A stretch of 22,650 nucleotides of DNA from Promethearchaeota archaeon (GTDB taxonomy: Archaea > Asgardarchaeota > Lokiarchaeia > Sigyniarchaeales > SOKP01), in contig JBHLMQ010000051.1 of the NCBI GenBank assembly GCA_048938005.1, positions 1 through 22,650 on the forward strand. Direction: 5' to 3'. Each line of letters starts with the position of its first letter. Position 1 is the first letter of the stretch. This document shows positions 14,244 to 20,501 of the stretch, piece after piece. The position numbers and the translations under genes were made by a program. The notes under the pieces are model-generated. The model was not told the origin of the DNA and did not search any database. It saw nothing but the letters and a program-made list of their open reading frames with translations.

Positions 14244-15500
14244 GTGATTAATATTTCAAAATCGAACCTTTATGATGAACACGCAGCTTTAAATCATGTT
14301 AGATCATTAGGATTTACACGTCACGCTGCTACTGATGGTGAAACAAAAACAATAAACTATATTCGAAAAGAACTTGATAAAGAGAATATTGATCCAAAAG
14401 TAGAGTCTTTTGAATGGACTAAAACATCAACAAAATTTAGGAAATTGATTTTTTTATGGATATTTATTGTTTCTATGAGTATTGATATATTATTGTTATA
14501 TCCCACTTTTACTTGGATAATACTTCCTCTTTATGGCTTTTTCTTTATAGTATTAGTCTTAGGAGGAAAATATGCTTTTGATCATTCGAGAAATATATTT
14601 ATAGGTAAGAAAAGAGAGTCAAAAAATGTTATAGCAACTATTCAAGCAAAAGATTTATATCCAAAAAGACCTGTGATTTTATTTTCTGCTCATCACGATT
14701 CAGTTTCATCAAATATTCCATATAAAGTTATGAAGCCGTTATATATTTCAATGGTATCATTGCTTATCTTAACTCTTCTTATAAACATATTTCTTTCCAT
14801 TTGGGCAATTATAGCATTGTTTACAGCAATTCAAATTGAAATTGTATATTTATGGATAAGAAATATATCCCTAATCCTTGGGATTATTCTGCTTATAGAA
14901 ATTTTCATAAACTTTTTTAGGAAAAAGACTAATCTTTCTATAGGTTCAATAGATAATGCCTCCGGTGTAGCAATTCTATTAGAATTAGCGAAATTAATTA
15001 AAAAAAATCCTCTTAAAAAAACCGATGTAATCTTTTTATGGTGTGGCGCAGAGGAGATGGGCCTCTGGGGTTCGAAACAGTATTGTGCAAAACATTTCGA
15101 AGAACTAGATTACTATTATGATTTGAATAAATCATATAATATTAATATCGATATGGTTGGTACTTATATAGGTTTAATTGAGAAAACTGGATTACTTAAA
15201 AAGAAAAACTTAAATGAAAATCTGAATGATGTCTTAAAAGCTTCCGATACACAACAGAAAATTCCATCTGAGAAAGCAAAAATGAAATTTGGTACTGGAA
15301 GTGATCATTTAGTTTTTCGTGCATTTGTAGAAAAAGGAAAAAGGAATGACTTTCAAGTTTGTTGTTTTTTATCAAATAAAGATTCAAAATATATACATTC
15401 TAAAAAAGATATTCCTGAATTTTGCTCTGCTGAAAATCTAAACGGTTGTATAGAAATTTGCTATAATGCCATAAAAAGCCTTGATCTACGAGTTGAATAA
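14244..15500 (+). CDS. Membrane-embedded M28 family metallopeptidase
   Basis: SAHHDS, DNASG, AEEMG, NIDMVG, SDH, YIHS metal/catalytic motifs; four TM helices in two hairpins. Confidence 0.9.
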   Translation: MINISKSNLYDEHAALNHVRSLGFTRHAATDGETKTINYIRKELDKENIDPKVESFEWTKTSTKFRKLIFLWIFIVSMSIDILLLYPTFTWIILPLYGFFFIVLVLGGKYAFDHSRNIFIGKKRESKNVIATIQAKDLYPKRPVILFSAHHDSVSSNIPYKVMKPLYISMVSLLILTLLINIFLSIWAIIALFTAIQIEIVYLWIRNISLILGIILLIEIFINFFRKKTNLSIGSIDNASGVAILLELAKLIKKNPLKKTDVIFLWCGAEEMGLWGSKQYCAKHFEELDYYYDLNKSYNINIDMVGTYIGLIEKTGLLKKKNLNENLNDVLKASDTQQKIPSEKAKMKFGTGSDHLVFRAFVEKGKRNDFQVCCFLSNKDSKYIHSKKDIPEFCSAENLNGCIEICYNAIKSLDLRVE

Positions 15501-16677: not shown

Positions 16678-17331
16678 TTATTTCTAAAGAATTAAATGAA
16701 TCCTTTTTTATTAAAAAAAAATCATCGGTATTATTCATTATACAAATTATAATGTTATATAGCCTGAATGAGTTTCCATTTTTTATGTGAATTATATTTG
16801 AAAAACACTTTACTTTAAAAATTTATTATTTTCATTTTTATGTTACTCAAAAATTACGAGGATATAGGGATATTAATGACATTTAGATTTTTATTTTGTT
16901 AATATTTGCCTTTAATACCTTATTTAAGGAGTTGGTGAAGAATTAGGCACTTAAAAAAAGAAAATGCATGAAATGAGCCTAAAATAAATATTATAAAGAA
17001 AAGTTTAAAGATATTGTTCAAGAAATTAAAAAAAAATGAAAAAAGCATTATGAGAGCTAACTAAGAAAAAAATGAATTTATTTTAAAGCAACATAAAACA
17101 TATGATATTTCGCGTCAATTTTATTCGTTGCTTTACATTGTTTACATGATTTTATATATCCCACAGCTTTAAATTTAATACAAAATAGGGAAGTTTGAAT
17201 AATTTCAATTAAAATGCATTATCTCTTATAGATTAAAAAAAAGAAAGGGCGCGAGATTAAAACTTCCAAATTTAAGTCTAGTATCACCCGCATATTATCC
17301 ATATTCATAGATGGCTTCGAAAATTCCTAAA

Positions 17332-17342
17332 TTTTTATATAA
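17332..17342. promoter_or_regulatory. TATA-box candidate (TTTTTATATAA), readable in both directions
   Basis: About 60 nt upstream of the GTG at 17404; also reads TTATATAAAAA on the minus strand, pointing at the hairpin region. Confidence 0.4.
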
Positions 17343-17403
17343 TTGATAAACATATTATTTATCTAAGCAGAATTAAAGAAACCGAACATGGGTTTTAAGT
17401 AAA

Positions 17404-19386
17404 GTGTACACCGACAAAAATCAAAATATTTTAGAAAAGCAACTCAAGACATTAGGTCAGAAGATTAGAATTGATATTTTAAAAAAGTTAAAAAAAACTC
17501 AAACTCCTTTATCATTTTCAAAGCTTCAAAAAGAGATTTTAGGAAATGACCCTTCTTCTGTTAATTTGTCTTTTCATTTAAACACATTAAAGAAGAGTGA
17601 GTTAGTTTTATCCTCTGAAGAAGGATATTCAATTACATTTTTAGGAGAGCAAATTTTAGATAAAATTTTATCTATTGAACAAATTCTAAATAAACAACAT
17701 AAAGCAAGGATGATCCGAACCTCAAAATATTCTAAAGAACTATTTGATTCAAGCAAAATTGAGGAATATTTAATGAAGGAAGGTGAATTGGAACGTTACT
17801 TAGCTAAAAAGATTGCTCATGAAGTAGAAGAGCGGCTTTCCAGGACAAATATAGAATATATGACTGCACCGTTGATGCGTGAATATATTAATGCGGTTTT
17901 ATTAGAAAATGGTTTAGAGGAAGTCAGACACAAGTTAACTCGATTAGGAACTCCTCCATTTGAGGTATTTCAATTATTTTATTCAAAGGAGTGTGAGATT
18001 ATGCCTGAAGATTGTATTAAAAGATTAGGTTCAGATGTTTCTGAACAATTTTTGCTTCTAAACCTTTTGCCTAAAAACTTAGCTGATCTGTATTTGTCTG
18101 GAGAAATTGCCTTACTCAATTTGAATTATTGGAGTTTAAGACCATTAGGTTTGTATATAAATACAAAAACAATAATCAATTATCTTTTCAAAACTCATTC
18201 GTATTCCTCACAAATAATTAAAGAATCTACAGATTATACCGATTTTATTATACACTTTTTTAATCTGTTATATACATTAAACCAATTTTATTCCGAAGAC
18301 TTACTTCTTGGTGATTTTAATTTTCAACTCCTCTCTAATTTTGAATTACCAAAAACTAAATCATTCAATTTCAATTTACTTACTTCTCAAATATCTAGGT
18401 TCAATAACTTCTTTAATGATGGTAAAACACATTTATCATTAAATTTCAATTATAATAGAGAATTAGTCGAAAACTTTAAAATTCAGAATCATATTGATAA
18501 AAAATTTCTTAATTCTTTGAAAATCCAAAATAATGACTGCATTAAACCCCTACTTCTTTTTGAATGGTTACCGCAATTTACATCAGAATCGGGAAATGAT
18601 ATCAGAAAAAGGCTTATTACTGATTCTATTAAAAATAATATAATAATCTATAATAAAGATTATTCAGATTTATTAAATTCAACGCTAGTTCGAATATCTA
18701 ACCCTAAAGAGGAAGTAATTATTTTAGATAAGATCTTAGCAAATTTATACCTTATATCCGTAGAGGCAAAGCAAAATGACGATTTATTTTTAGATTTATT
18801 ACAAAATAAATTAAATTCTATATTTGAATTATTTAAAAATAAAGATAAATTAGTTCAAAAAAGACTAAATTCTCTTAAACAATGGAATCTCGTAATTTCT
18901 CGGATTTTAAATAAAGATATAAAACACTTATTTAGAGAATCGTTAAAGGCCATTAGTTTTTTTGGATTAAATGAGGCTATTTTAAATCACTGTGGAATTG
19001 AACTTGATAGAACAGAAAGTAGTGAAGCTTTTGCGTTAAAAATACTATCAAAAATGAAAAATATTATTGACGAAAGAAATGAAATTGATAACAATCATTT
19101 TATTCTAAGTCAACCGCATCATGATTCTTATTTGAAAGATTCCTACCATAATGGTATGGCACAATACAAACAAAAAGTAAATGGATATTCTTCAAGAATA
19201 ATTAGACGTGAATCTAATATTCCTTTAAATAAAAAAATCAAAATATTTAAAAAATTTCAAAAAATCCTCAATGGAGGGGCTTTATTTATAGAAAAAAAAC
19301 CACCTGAAATGTCATATCAAAAATTTTTAAAAGTTTTATTTGACTCCAAAATAGGCGCGATTTCTTTAAATGATTGCATATTCTAA
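17404..19386 (+). CDS. ArsR-like winged-HTH + ATP-cone + degenerate class III ribonucleotide reductase (NrdD-like) fusion; putative regulator
   Basis: wHTH: IRIDILKKL...LSFSKL...LSFHLNTLKKSELV...YSITFLG. ATP cone: IRTS...FDSSKI...TAPLMRE...LLENG...TRLG. NrdD-barrel remnants: ISFFGLNEA, ILSQP, LNGG. No glycyl-radical tail. Confidence 0.82.
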   Translation: MYTDKNQNILEKQLKTLGQKIRIDILKKLKKTQTPLSFSKLQKEILGNDPSSVNLSFHLNTLKKSELVLSSEEGYSITFLGEQILDKILSIEQILNKQHKARMIRTSKYSKELFDSSKIEEYLMKEGELERYLAKKIAHEVEERLSRTNIEYMTAPLMREYINAVLLENGLEEVRHKLTRLGTPPFEVFQLFYSKECEIMPEDCIKRLGSDVSEQFLLLNLLPKNLADLYLSGEIALLNLNYWSLRPLGLYINTKTIINYLFKTHSYSSQIIKESTDYTDFIIHFFNLLYTLNQFYSEDLLLGDFNFQLLSNFELPKTKSFNFNLLTSQISRFNNFFNDGKTHLSLNFNYNRELVENFKIQNHIDKKFLNSLKIQNNDCIKPLLLFEWLPQFTSESGNDIRKRLITDSIKNNIIIYNKDYSDLLNSTLVRISNPKEEVIILDKILANLYLISVEAKQNDDLFLDLLQNKLNSIFELFKNKDKLVQKRLNSLKQWNLVISRILNKDIKHLFRESLKAISFFGLNEAILNHCGIELDRTESSEAFALKILSKMKNIIDERNEIDNNHFILSQPHHDSYLKDSYHNGMAQYKQKVNGYSSRIIRRESNIPLNKKIKIFKKFQKILNGGALFIEKKPPEMSYQKFLKVLFDSKIGAISLNDCIF

Positions 19387-19422: not shown

Positions 19423-20340
19423 TTACTTAGTCATTAATTCTGCTAAGAGAGCTTTCCTCATAGGGATCCCATAATAAGTTTGTTTAAAGTAAAGCGCCTT
19501 TTCTGAACCGTCGACACTTGGAGAAATTTCTGTAATTCTTGGTAATGGATGCAATAATCTAAAGTTATCTTTTGTTTCTTCAAGGTCCTCTTTTTGAAAT
19601 GTATAAAAACCTTTAATTCTTTCATATTCTTCCAAATCAACAAATCTTTCTTTCTGGATCCGTGTCATATAAAGTACATCTAAAATATTTAGTATTTTCC
19701 TATAATCTGTGATTTCTTTATATTTTGCCTGCCGTTGTTGTAAAAAATCCTTATCACGATTTCTCATTTTCAATTCAATAGGACTTATGAAATAAATATT
19801 AATATCGAAATTCGAAAGTAAAATCGCAAGTGAATGAACTGTTCTCCCATATTTTAGATCTCCCATTAAGCCTATATTTAATCCATCTAATGGACCTAAT
19901 TCTTCAGTTATGGTTAATAAGTCTAATAATGCTTGAGTTGGATGTTCTCCACTTCCAGATCCAGCATTAATAATAGGAATTTTCGCAAATTTAGCTGCCA
20001 TTGTTGCTGCTCCTTCAAGCGAATGTCTCATAACTATACAATCACTATAATTCTCTACAGTTCTTATTGTATCTGCAATACTTTCCCCTTTTTTAATTGA
20101 AGAAACATCTCCAGAATGGAAACCAATTACACTCCCACCTAATCTATACATAGCAGATTCAAAACTAAGACGCGTACGAGTAGAAGGTTCAAAAAATAAA
20201 GTAGCTAAGATTTTTCCTTGAAGTATATTTGAATTTTTAATTTGAATCATTTCTTTGCCTTTCTTTAAAATGTATTCAATATCTTCCCTATCAAATTGCT
20301 TAGCACTTATTATGCCTTCGCTAAATTTCTCTTTAAACAT
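19423..20340 (-). CDS. pyrB: Aspartate carbamoyltransferase catalytic subunit
   Basis: FFEPSTRTRLSF, HPTQALLD, GDLKYGRTVHSL, TRIQKER, HPLPR. Confidence 0.98.
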   Translation of the reverse strand: MFKEKFSEGIISAKQFDREDIEYILKKGKEMIQIKNSNILQGKILATLFFEPSTRTRLSFESAMYRLGGSVIGFHSGDVSSIKKGESIADTIRTVENYSDCIVMRHSLEGAATMAAKFAKIPIINAGSGSGEHPTQALLDLLTITEELGPLDGLNIGLMGDLKYGRTVHSLAILLSNFDINIYFISPIELKMRNRDKDFLQQRQAKYKEITDYRKILNILDVLYMTRIQKERFVDLEEYERIKGFYTFQKEDLEETKDNFRLLHPLPRITEISPSVDGSEKALYFKQTYYGIPMRKALLAELMTK

Positions 20341-20501
20341 TTAATTTCTCAATCAATATGTTTTTATTAACATTATGTAAATAAGATTTAAATTATTTTT
20401 TATTAAATGATGGTTGTTCAAAAAGAACTGACCAGAACTAATAAAATTTAAAATTTATGAATAATTAGTTTAGGTAATTAGATAATAGTGGTTTATCAAA
20501 A

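Follow-up and report, generated by a model that had tools for sequence, protein, structure and literature searches.

Can an anaerobic ribonucleotide reductase (RNR) be cut down to a DNA-binding regulator? The question is raised by one gene on a 22,650-nt stretch of DNA (the window) from a Promethearchaeota archaeon (Asgardarchaeota; Lokiarchaeia; Sigyniarchaeales; assembly GCA_048938005.1, contig JBHLMQ010000051.1). The gene encodes a 660-aa protein, here called X, in which a winged helix-turn-helix (wHTH) is followed by an ATP-cone and by a barrel like that of NrdD, the class III RNR. An initial annotation, made from the letters of the sequence, took X for an inactivated NrdD and a candidate nucleotide-sensing transcription factor. 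Here we report that X is almost certainly a non-catalytic derivative of NrdD, that it belongs to a widespread archaeal family under purifying selection, and that its gene is linked to pyrB, which encodes the catalytic chain of aspartate carbamoyltransferase (ATCase). We give about an even chance to the reading of X as a non-catalytic, nucleotide-sensing, DNA-binding regulator tied to the supply of pyrimidines and deoxynucleoside triphosphates (dNTPs).

X keeps the NrdD fold and has lost the catalytic elements

Pfam NRDD (PF13597) matches X over aa 447-656, corresponding to profile positions 285-505 of 562 (E 2.2e-17; 63.4 bits against a cut-off of 26.2), and the NCBIfam equivalog for NrdD, TIGR02487, gives 48.7 bits, far below its cut-off of 326.35. 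When a profile of 30 family members was aligned with the true NrdD encoded elsewhere in the same genome (hhalign), X aa 101-628 paired with NrdD 28-616 at a probability of 97.1% (E 6e-11). An AlphaFold model built on the 30-member alignment (predicted local distance difference test, pLDDT, 73.3; predicted template-modelling score, pTM, 0.65) is good in the barrel and the wHTH and poor at aa 94-112, 148-157 and 179-221. With this model, Foldseek returned only NrdD structures among the matches listed through rank 35, followed by class I RNRs. The best match is P. copri 8p28_A (E 4.6e-17; TM 0.51-0.63), and the top targets, the dATP-bound structures 8p28 and 9d3x, align over ~660 columns. Searching the PDB with the single X sequence gave no NrdD, and the full-length profile gave weak NrdD matches only (E 0.014-0.4). 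The RNR-type barrel expected by the initial annotation is seen in both the profile alignment and the structural matches, and the NrdD landmark strings it had picked out line up as well: the NLPR strand, the GLNEA strand, QPAES and NGG of X coincide with true NrdD motifs.

That correspondence was read from a 27-row MAFFT alignment of four close family members, 12 longer relatives, nine proteins of the NrdD family that come from Asgard genomes and have no wHTH, and a second NrdD paralogue in two copies. Eight of the nine wHTH-less proteins are intact: their finger loop has a Cys-Cys pair, a further Cys follows the first barrel strand, the linker carries an N-A-N flap, and the C-terminus has CxxC..CxxC plus the Gly-loop motif. 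The ninth, from genome G112, is itself degenerate. The corresponding finger-loop segment of X (aa 420-437) contains no Cys, the column of the lower active-site Cys holds Gly, and the N-A-N flap, found in 8/8 true Asgard NrdDs checked, is missing. The X chain ends at the last barrel strand, before CxxC..CxxC and RxxGY, and so has neither the Gly nor any of the four Zn-binding Cys (0/4). The Cys-free finger loop and the early end of the chain had been claimed in the initial annotation and are borne out by the alignment; the lower active-site Cys and the NxN flap are two losses beyond those it listed. No split partner supplying the missing NrdD parts lies beside the X gene. We regard the non-catalytic nature of X as close to certain.

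The barrel also contains a His-Cys-Gly triplet at aa 529-531 (nt 18988-18996) that is invariant in 30/30 aligned 660-aa members. It holds the sole invariant Cys and is missing at that position from the long forms and the true NrdDs.

The N-terminal part joins a winged helix to a divergent ATP-cone

An ArsR-like wHTH at the N-terminus, proposed from the letters, is found by profile searches. DUF7347 matches aa 14-88 (E 1.4e-10; 41.7 bits against a cut-off of 27.6), with HTH_20 and HTH_5 as weak matches, and the N-terminal family profile leads to the solved ArsR/SmtB regulators CadC (1u2w, E 3e-4), ArsR (6j05), HlyU (3jth), NolR (4omy) and CzrA (1r1u), the five at E 3e-4 to 7e-3. An S-x-H-L motif in the recognition helix of X aligns with all five. 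The first 95 residues contain no Cys and a single His, which means that the metal-sensor sites of ArsR/SmtB proteins are absent, and the ArsR family model NF033788 scores 25.2 bits, below its cut-off of 55. ArsR-type winged helices bind DNA as dimers. We think it rather likely that X binds DNA.

The cone of X (aa 103-174) aligns with the cone of the genome's true NrdD, and most of the long relatives carry PF03477 in precomputed annotation. ATP-cones bind ATP and dATP and, by the available text of PMC11226230, are essentially limited to RNRs and NrdR. Nucleotide binding by the X cone, through conserved basic and aromatic residues, is a prediction, and we lean slightly towards the cone being a nucleotide sensor. 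Behind the cone, the linker and first barrel elements (aa 175-250) contain many columns that are invariant across all wHTH forms, and aa 179-221 have low pLDDT despite strong conservation. In the P. copri enzyme, the source of the flap role and residue numbering used here, cone, flap and Gly domain move together (PMC11226230, available text). Loss of the flap in X argues against substrate-like binding.

Selection is strongest outside the former active site

We calculated dN/dS by the Nei-Gojobori method between X and three relatives (L004, L005 and L006), and mean pairwise identity over 30 members. For the whole of X, dN/dS is 0.18-0.20. The wHTH (dN/dS 0.08-0.12; identity 0.71) and the cone plus linker (0.06-0.11; identity 0.81, the most conserved part of the family) are under the tightest constraint, followed by the barrel's C-terminal half (0.20-0.24; 0.55) and its N-terminal half (0.26-0.38; 0.38). 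Selection is strongest on the parts that a nucleotide-sensing DNA binder would need and weakest at the former active site. The position of the start codon is common to relatives. In the 41 searched genomes of the window's GTDB family there are 38 full-length matches (profile positions 1-5 to 655-660). Of these, 32 contain no stop; six contain a single TAA, perhaps the normal stop codon of the gene or a product of assembly. The argument of the initial annotation, that so long an open frame speaks against simple decay, is strengthened by this purifying selection.

A complete NrdD and NrdG are encoded elsewhere in the genome

The source genome (3.72 Mb, 101 contigs, 95% complete, 7% contamination) encodes a true NrdD of 711 aa on another contig, C57, which scores 441.7 bits on TIGR02487, above the cut-off, and has all motifs. 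As the initial annotation had noted, the window contains no nrdG; one is present on contig C39, above cut-off (TIGR02495, 151 bits). PyrI is encoded on contig C90, unlinked from pyrB, and no class I or class II RNR was found in the genome.

A second inactivated NrdD paralogue is found at C9:42444-44246 (-), locus L002 1480-3333 (-). The protein, of 617 aa and 45% identical to the true NrdD, has no wHTH; its finger loop has been removed by a deletion of 25 residues, Ser takes the place of the lower Cys, and there is no C-terminal Zn/Gly domain. Copies like it, of 581-645 aa, occur in at least 17 of the 41 genomes of the same GTDB family. The paralogue nests inside the true NrdD clade and thus represents a separate, recent inactivation. 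A third, independent degenerate NrdD was seen in genome G112 of another family, f26 (L121 862-3054, -). This 730-aa protein has no wHTH; it keeps both CxxC pairs and has lost the loop Gly, the lower Cys and the pair of Cys in the finger loop.

In three near-complete genomes of the window's family, G019, G159 and G208 (98, 99 and 95% complete), X is the sole NrdD-family match and a search for class I or II RNR found none; the bins may have missed the RNR gene, or else the organisms are without de novo dNTP synthesis. In two further genomes, the matches to true nrdD lie in open frames of 1658 aa (G213:C21) and 1687 aa (G168:C45) and are split in pieces, consistent with intein-size insertions.

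The family is widespread and keeps intermediates of the reduction

A word-indexed search with X returned 480 homologues, the best 120 of which are 559-671 aa long (116 at 648-671) and 53-87% identical; their public names are "anaerobic ribonucleoside-triphosphate reductase", "HxlR/ArsR family regulator", or none. We then surveyed 200 sampled genomes of the phylum plus G000, with GTDB families numbered so that f1 is the window's own. The 660-aa form (full length, >570 bits) is confined to f1, where 38 of the 40 sampled genomes besides G000 have it. A longer form of 712-780 aa with the same N-terminal half is present in f2 (3/3), f9 (1/1), f13 (3/3), f15 (3/4), f19 (5/6) and f21 (2/3). Families f7, f8 and f12 gave only ATP-cone/first-barrel matches (profile ~85-260), in open frames mostly of 610-820 aa without a wHTH that we take to be true NrdDs, and several GTDB families gave no match in this survey.

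Beyond these genomes, a profile of the N-terminal 250 residues, searched exhaustively, found 2937 representatives of 50%-identity clusters at E<=1e-3 and 249 at E<=1e-30, and the best 150 matches all run from the wHTH onward. A long form as query gave 2544 matches at E<=1e-30 in which an HTH, an ATP-cone and NRDD are combined. Their source names include Freyarchaeota, Jordarchaeum, Njordarchaeum, Helarchaeota, Odinarchaeota, Baldrarchaeia and Hodarchaeota among Asgard archaea, and Methanomethylicota and Bathyarchaeia outside them. Similar fusions in other Asgard and TACK genomes, suspected in the initial annotation to pass as NrdD, do exist and are mostly annotated that way; two long forms score 302 and 321 bits, just under the equivalog cut-off of 326, which fits the public names. 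A quick, unrooted IQ-TREE tree of the 27 aligned rows separated every wHTH form from the true NrdDs by a branch of length 0.98 with full support, with three rows on long branches whose placement is unsure.

To the reference alignment we added 358 proteins of at least 560 aa, 357 of which have at least 60 residues before the cone; the set draws on three overlapping searches and is dominated by Asgard sequences, and its counts are not an unbiased sample. Neither the finger-loop Cys nor the loop Gly is present in 268 of the 357, only the Gly in 68, only the Cys in 16 and both in five. The lower Cys was found in one. All four Zn Cys are kept by 173 and none by 182. A column-based check for the NxN flap failed on true NrdDs of other subtypes, and an anchored regular expression was used instead; it gave 29 loose matches among 348 family members, and of 12 inspected, 11 were N-rich spacer and one (P0132) was flap-like. 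The counts sketch a stepwise reduction, in which a wHTH was fused to NrdD and the thiyl Cys, the lower Cys and the flap were lost, with loss of the Zn/Gly domain as well in some lineages, including that of the window. Intermediates of such a reduction survive, with the Zn site and Gly loop kept and the Cys lost.

The X gene is linked to pyrB

The gene order in the window is RpoA1, RpoA2, L30e, NusA, a peptidase M28 gene, S12, S7, a 726-nt spacer, X, pyrB, L44e and S27e, with pyrB on the opposite strand, convergent with X, and the two stop codons 36 nt apart (Table 1). We counted neighbors within 6 kb at 80 close loci from species genomes. There pyrB is found at 78 loci, L44e and S27e at 75 each, S7 at 72 and S12 at 66. 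X and pyrB usually lie tail to tail 0-60 nt apart, and over the 78 loci the gap is 0-127 nt except at L044 (176 nt) and L024 (614 nt). The link between S7 and X is loose, with gaps of 136-5880 nt. In a metagenome scan, which returned mostly close relatives of X and hardly widened the taxonomic sample, pyrB was seen at 64 of 80 loci and at 59 of the 59 in which a full-length X was followed by 400 nt or more.

The long forms, examined in Asgard loci, show the pair in other gene surroundings too. In f13 (3/3) and f15 (3/3) pyrB converges on X and diverges from pyrI, and the genes on the opposite side are unrelated ones (for an HTH_3 protein and HMG-CoA reductase). In the single f9 genome (G007) X and an abutting upstream pyrB share a strand, with pyrI divergent, and a true nrdD converges on X from the far side; this is the only one of 17 genomes with a long form and a fetched locus in which X adjoins nrdD. 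One of three f2 genomes (G089) has pyrB upstream of X on the same strand, another has no pyrB nearby, and in the last the contig ends too early to tell. One more contig encodes an X with 71% identity to a Helarchaeota-named protein; on it X, pyrB and pyrI follow in series on one strand. Conservation of a neighbor in three orientations and against several backgrounds usually signals a functional tie, and we have no evidence on what X acts on other than this linkage.

Table 1. Features of the X locus (positions in the window; aa numbering of X).
Feature	Position	Strand	Basis or remark
X gene	17404..19386	+	uninterrupted open reading frame, 660 codons, GTG start
ArsR/SmtB-like winged helix-turn-helix, aa 14-88	17443..17667	+	Pfam DUF7347
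Divergent ATP-cone, aa 103-174	17710..17925	+	Pfam PF03477, 23.8 bits
Linker and first barrel elements, aa 175-250	17926..18153	+	NrdD flap/first-strand equivalent; without N-x-N, without lower Cys
NrdD-type alpha/beta barrel, non-catalytic, aa 251-656	18154..19371	+	Pfam, profile alignment, Foldseek
NrdD finger-loop position, aa 420-437	18661..18714	+	shortened, Cys-free in X
Three conserved blocks upstream of X	17281-17299, 17320-17345 (TATA-like box inside), 17350-17381	+	MAFFT
pyrB, aspartate carbamoyltransferase catalytic chain	19423..20340	-	Pfam OTCace_N + OTCace
Near-invariant 48-nt block	20358..20405	.	17-65 nt upstream of pyrB start codon
Near-invariant 35-nt block	20433-20467	.	pyrB-L44e spacer

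Some further observations concern the neighborhood. The peptidase M28 gene (14244-15500, +), between NusA and S12, is present at only 16 of the 80 related loci. One locus with the S7 - X - pyrB order, L074 (DATKTW010000033.1), is titled Nanopelagicaceae bacterium; the order is that of Asgard loci, its S7 and pyrB products are 77-80% identical, and the contig has probably been mis-binned. In f15 and f19 the long X has immediately upstream of it a gene for a ~240-aa protein with an N-terminal HTH_3 domain (L089 461-1186, +; L091 3802-4530, -; L085 4109-4828, -), the remainder of which matches no Pfam family.

Conserved non-coding blocks flank X and pyrB

In the last 150 nt before the X start codon, compared across 78 loci, the three blocks of Table 1 are 80-99% conserved, with flanking columns at ~40-60%; they may represent a promoter plus a possible operator. 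The first block has one exact copy in the genome and five at two mismatches, compared with four for a reversed control; being unique, it defines no regulon. The 161-nt spacer between pyrB and L44e contains two blocks that are longer than a promoter of B recognition element (BRE) and TATA box needs. Columns of the 48-nt block are mostly 90-99% conserved in a MAFFT alignment of 74 species-level loci, at which the flanking proteins differ by 6-25%.

Two operator candidates were considered and dropped. An inverted repeat in the 48-nt pyrB block had three matches in the window at <=1 mismatch versus 2.4 expected, and 15 sites in the genome versus six for a reversed control, and it was exact in only 25 of the 74 loci. 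A short box that occurs in two X blocks and, altered, after the pyrB TATA-like box was too AT-rich and too short to weigh. In the pyrB-pyrI spacers of f13 (n=3) an 8-mer is repeated 43-49 nt apart, exact in two genomes and with a one-mismatch copy in the third, and no copy of it was found upstream of X in those genomes.

Upstream of the true nrdD (19 loci, among L122-L143) there are also conserved blocks, with a near-invariant 12-mer ~110 nt before the start codon and downstream of a TATA-like block, which suggests a long conserved leader. No evident tandem NrdR-like box, or motif common to the regions upstream of nrdD, X and pyrB, was seen by inspection, no formal motif search having been made. 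The window has no Rfam match and no tRNA. The spacer between S7 and X (16678-17403, 726 nt) likewise holds no open reading frame >42 aa, and in relatives only its last ~130 nt are conserved.

A model for X, and the readings that compete with it

We hypothesize that the NrdD barrel of X, stripped of radical chemistry, serves as a scaffold and most likely forms a dimer on the NrdD pattern. ATP or dATP would bind the cone, and other (d)NTPs may bind relics of the barrel sites. The cones, joined to the wHTH by one helix (aa 79-99 in the model), would pair differently with ATP than with dATP, and their pairing would set the spacing of the winged helices and so switch DNA binding at the promoters of nucleotide-supply genes, either to activate or to repress them. 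The conserved, poorly modelled linker at aa 179-221 may be a segment that becomes ordered when ligand or partner binds. The most likely target would be pyrB(-pyrI), where pyrimidine synthesis has its first committed step, with the promoter of X itself as a second candidate; we put pyrB as the target at a little under an even chance. In its widest form the proposal would be that an ancient family in Asgard archaea, Bathyarchaeia and Methanomethylicota turned a whole anaerobic RNR into a transcription factor that reads ATP and dATP, perhaps also pyrimidine nucleotides, and controls pyrB/pyrI, coupling pyrimidine synthesis to the supply of DNA precursors. X would then be a third kind of ATP-cone protein and a functional counterpart of both NrdR and PyrR, a proposal that we offer only tentatively and hold to be rather doubtful.

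Several observations weigh against X as a nucleotide-sensing regulator of pyrB. The cone was called well preserved in the initial annotation; a cone is there, and it is divergent, at 23.8 bits (E 6.5e-5) just below the PF03477 cut-off of 25.8. The P. copri NrdD ligand residues Lys7, Arg8, Tyr83, Arg87 and Arg91 could not be mapped onto it, and its profile matched no solved ATP-cone in the PDB at E<=10. X also diverges faster than its neighbors, with identities of 46-87% compared with 74-94% for pyrB and 73-93% for S7. No operator for X was found in the blocks upstream of X or pyrB, and the similarity between the two promoter blocks is weak. The convergent layout usual in the window's family is not the classic arrangement of a regulator and its target, and pyrB is not adjacent to X in f19 (0/5) or f21 (0/2), where one genome (G038) has pyrI 4 kb away. 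Finally, the initial annotation had held that homologues retaining the catalytic Cys and the glycyl-radical domain would count against it. Some relatives do keep the Zn site and a Gly-loop motif and 5/357 keep both radical residues, among them P0343 and P0375 with canonical-looking Cys and Gly motifs, which suggests that the ancestral fusion may have been an active enzyme; the window protein keeps none of these elements. P0343 and P0375 are themselves without the lower Cys and the N-A-N flap, and members such as these may be active in some way.

Could X instead be a strict counterpart of NrdR, repressing nrdD and nrdG in response to dATP and ATP, with the link to pyrB incidental or a second target? 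X does pair an ATP-cone with a DNA-binding domain as NrdR does, it descends from NrdD itself, and in G007 it lies tail to tail with the true nrdD. NrdR is reported absent from Archaea (10.1101/2025.03.28.645925, available text), which leaves the role open, and the conserved blocks upstream of nrdD, including the 12-mer in the long leader, could belong to such a control. We nevertheless consider this unlikely. G007 is the only case of adjacency in 17 genomes, no nrdD turned up within 6 kb at the 80 close loci (where no nrdD query was run), the nrdD of the window's genome is on another contig, and the upstream blocks of X, pyrB and nrdD have no motif in common. In G019, G159 and G208 X is the sole NrdD-family match and no class I or II RNR was found, an absence that gaps in the metagenome-assembled genomes could explain. 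The same three genomes speak, weakly and with the same reservation, against an obligate NrdD partner, which is one version of a regulator acting at the protein level: the dead barrel would pair with ATCase (PyrB) or, as a heterodimer, with the true NrdD and relay the state of the cone, the wHTH serving for contacts or tethering. The tight and old linkage to pyrB, including the abutting same-strand pair of G007, would suit this mode of action, as would the dimeric nature of NrdD, the barrel fold kept in X and the unlinking of pyrI from pyrB in the window's genome. PyrI is still encoded in that genome, however, and constraint within X is among the tightest in the recognition helix and wing of ArsR type, as expected for contact with DNA. 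We rate a protein-level regulator as quite improbable.

That leaves two readings in which X would have no regulatory role. A residual catalytic or nucleotide-processing activity without the radical residues, or with the missing parts supplied in trans, would fit the purifying selection on the barrel and the relatives that keep the Zn site (173/357), the Gly-loop motif (73/357) or both Cys and Gly (5/357). X itself has neither Cys position, no flap, no C-terminal domain and no split partner beside it, the C9 paralogue is truncated and without the same parts, and the barrel is the least constrained region of the protein; we consider such an activity very improbable. For a decaying pseudogene or an annotation artefact one could cite the missing catalytic elements and the identity of 0.38 in the N-terminal half of the barrel. 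With an intact frame of 660 codons, 32 of 38 full-length f1 matches without a stop, dN/dS of ~0.2, 249 clusters at E<=1e-30 and a conserved position, the chance of this is close to negligible. Of all these readings we prefer that of a nucleotide-sensing, DNA-binding regulator.

Significance and relation to known systems

The architecture of X is not described in the full-text literature searched, which includes the available text of the RNR evolution papers PMC9669993 and PMC3019208 and of 10.1101/2025.07.27.667033, PMC11226230 and 10.1101/2025.03.28.645925, with supplements and subscription journals outside its scope. "DUF7347" occurs in no paper of that literature. Annotation pipelines have already seen the domain combination, and some members have JGI names for it. 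The family is probably an ATP-cone regulator with an enzyme-derived sensor that was not previously described in the literature searched. Members labelled "anaerobic ribonucleoside-triphosphate reductase" mean that metabolic reconstructions of Asgard archaea, Bathyarchaeia and Methanomethylicota that count X as an RNR can be wrong; in G019, G159 and G208 X is the only NrdD-family match. To our knowledge, little has been established on how Asgard and TACK archaea control pyrimidine or dNTP synthesis at the level of transcription. If our model is correct, X would be a first candidate regulator of nucleotide supply in these archaea and a further, independent use of the ATP-cone in gene control, and its family would be a clean case of a whole radical enzyme cut down stepwise to a sensor scaffold.

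Among known systems, X is closest in descent to class III NrdD, with which it is homologous from the cone to the end of the barrel, sharing the fold and the NLPR, GLNEA and NGG strand motifs. It differs in the lost Cys, flap, Zn and Gly elements, in the extra wHTH, in forming a separate clade and in a TIGR02487 score below the cut-off. The 617-aa C9 paralogue resembles X in having no finger loop, lower Cys or C-terminal domain and differs in having no wHTH. The likeness to NrdR lies in a DNA-binding domain followed directly by an ATP-cone and in the proposed geometry, since in NrdR nucleotides in the cone reorient the DNA-binding domains (10.1101/2025.03.28.645925, available text). Unlike NrdR, X has an ArsR-like wHTH in place of a Zn ribbon, is ~4x larger and contains a dead RNR barrel; it is archaeal, has an independent origin from NrdD, stands in the context of pyrB and not of nrd genes, and has no NrdR-box-like repeat that we could find. 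With ArsR/SmtB regulators X shares the winged helix and the recognition-helix motif, whereas their metal sites are absent and the sensing part would be the cone plus barrel. Bacterial PyrR is an enzyme fold of nucleotide metabolism that was reused as a sensor controlling pyrimidine genes; there a phosphoribosyltransferase fold binds RNA, whereas in X an RNR fold is joined to a DNA-binding domain.

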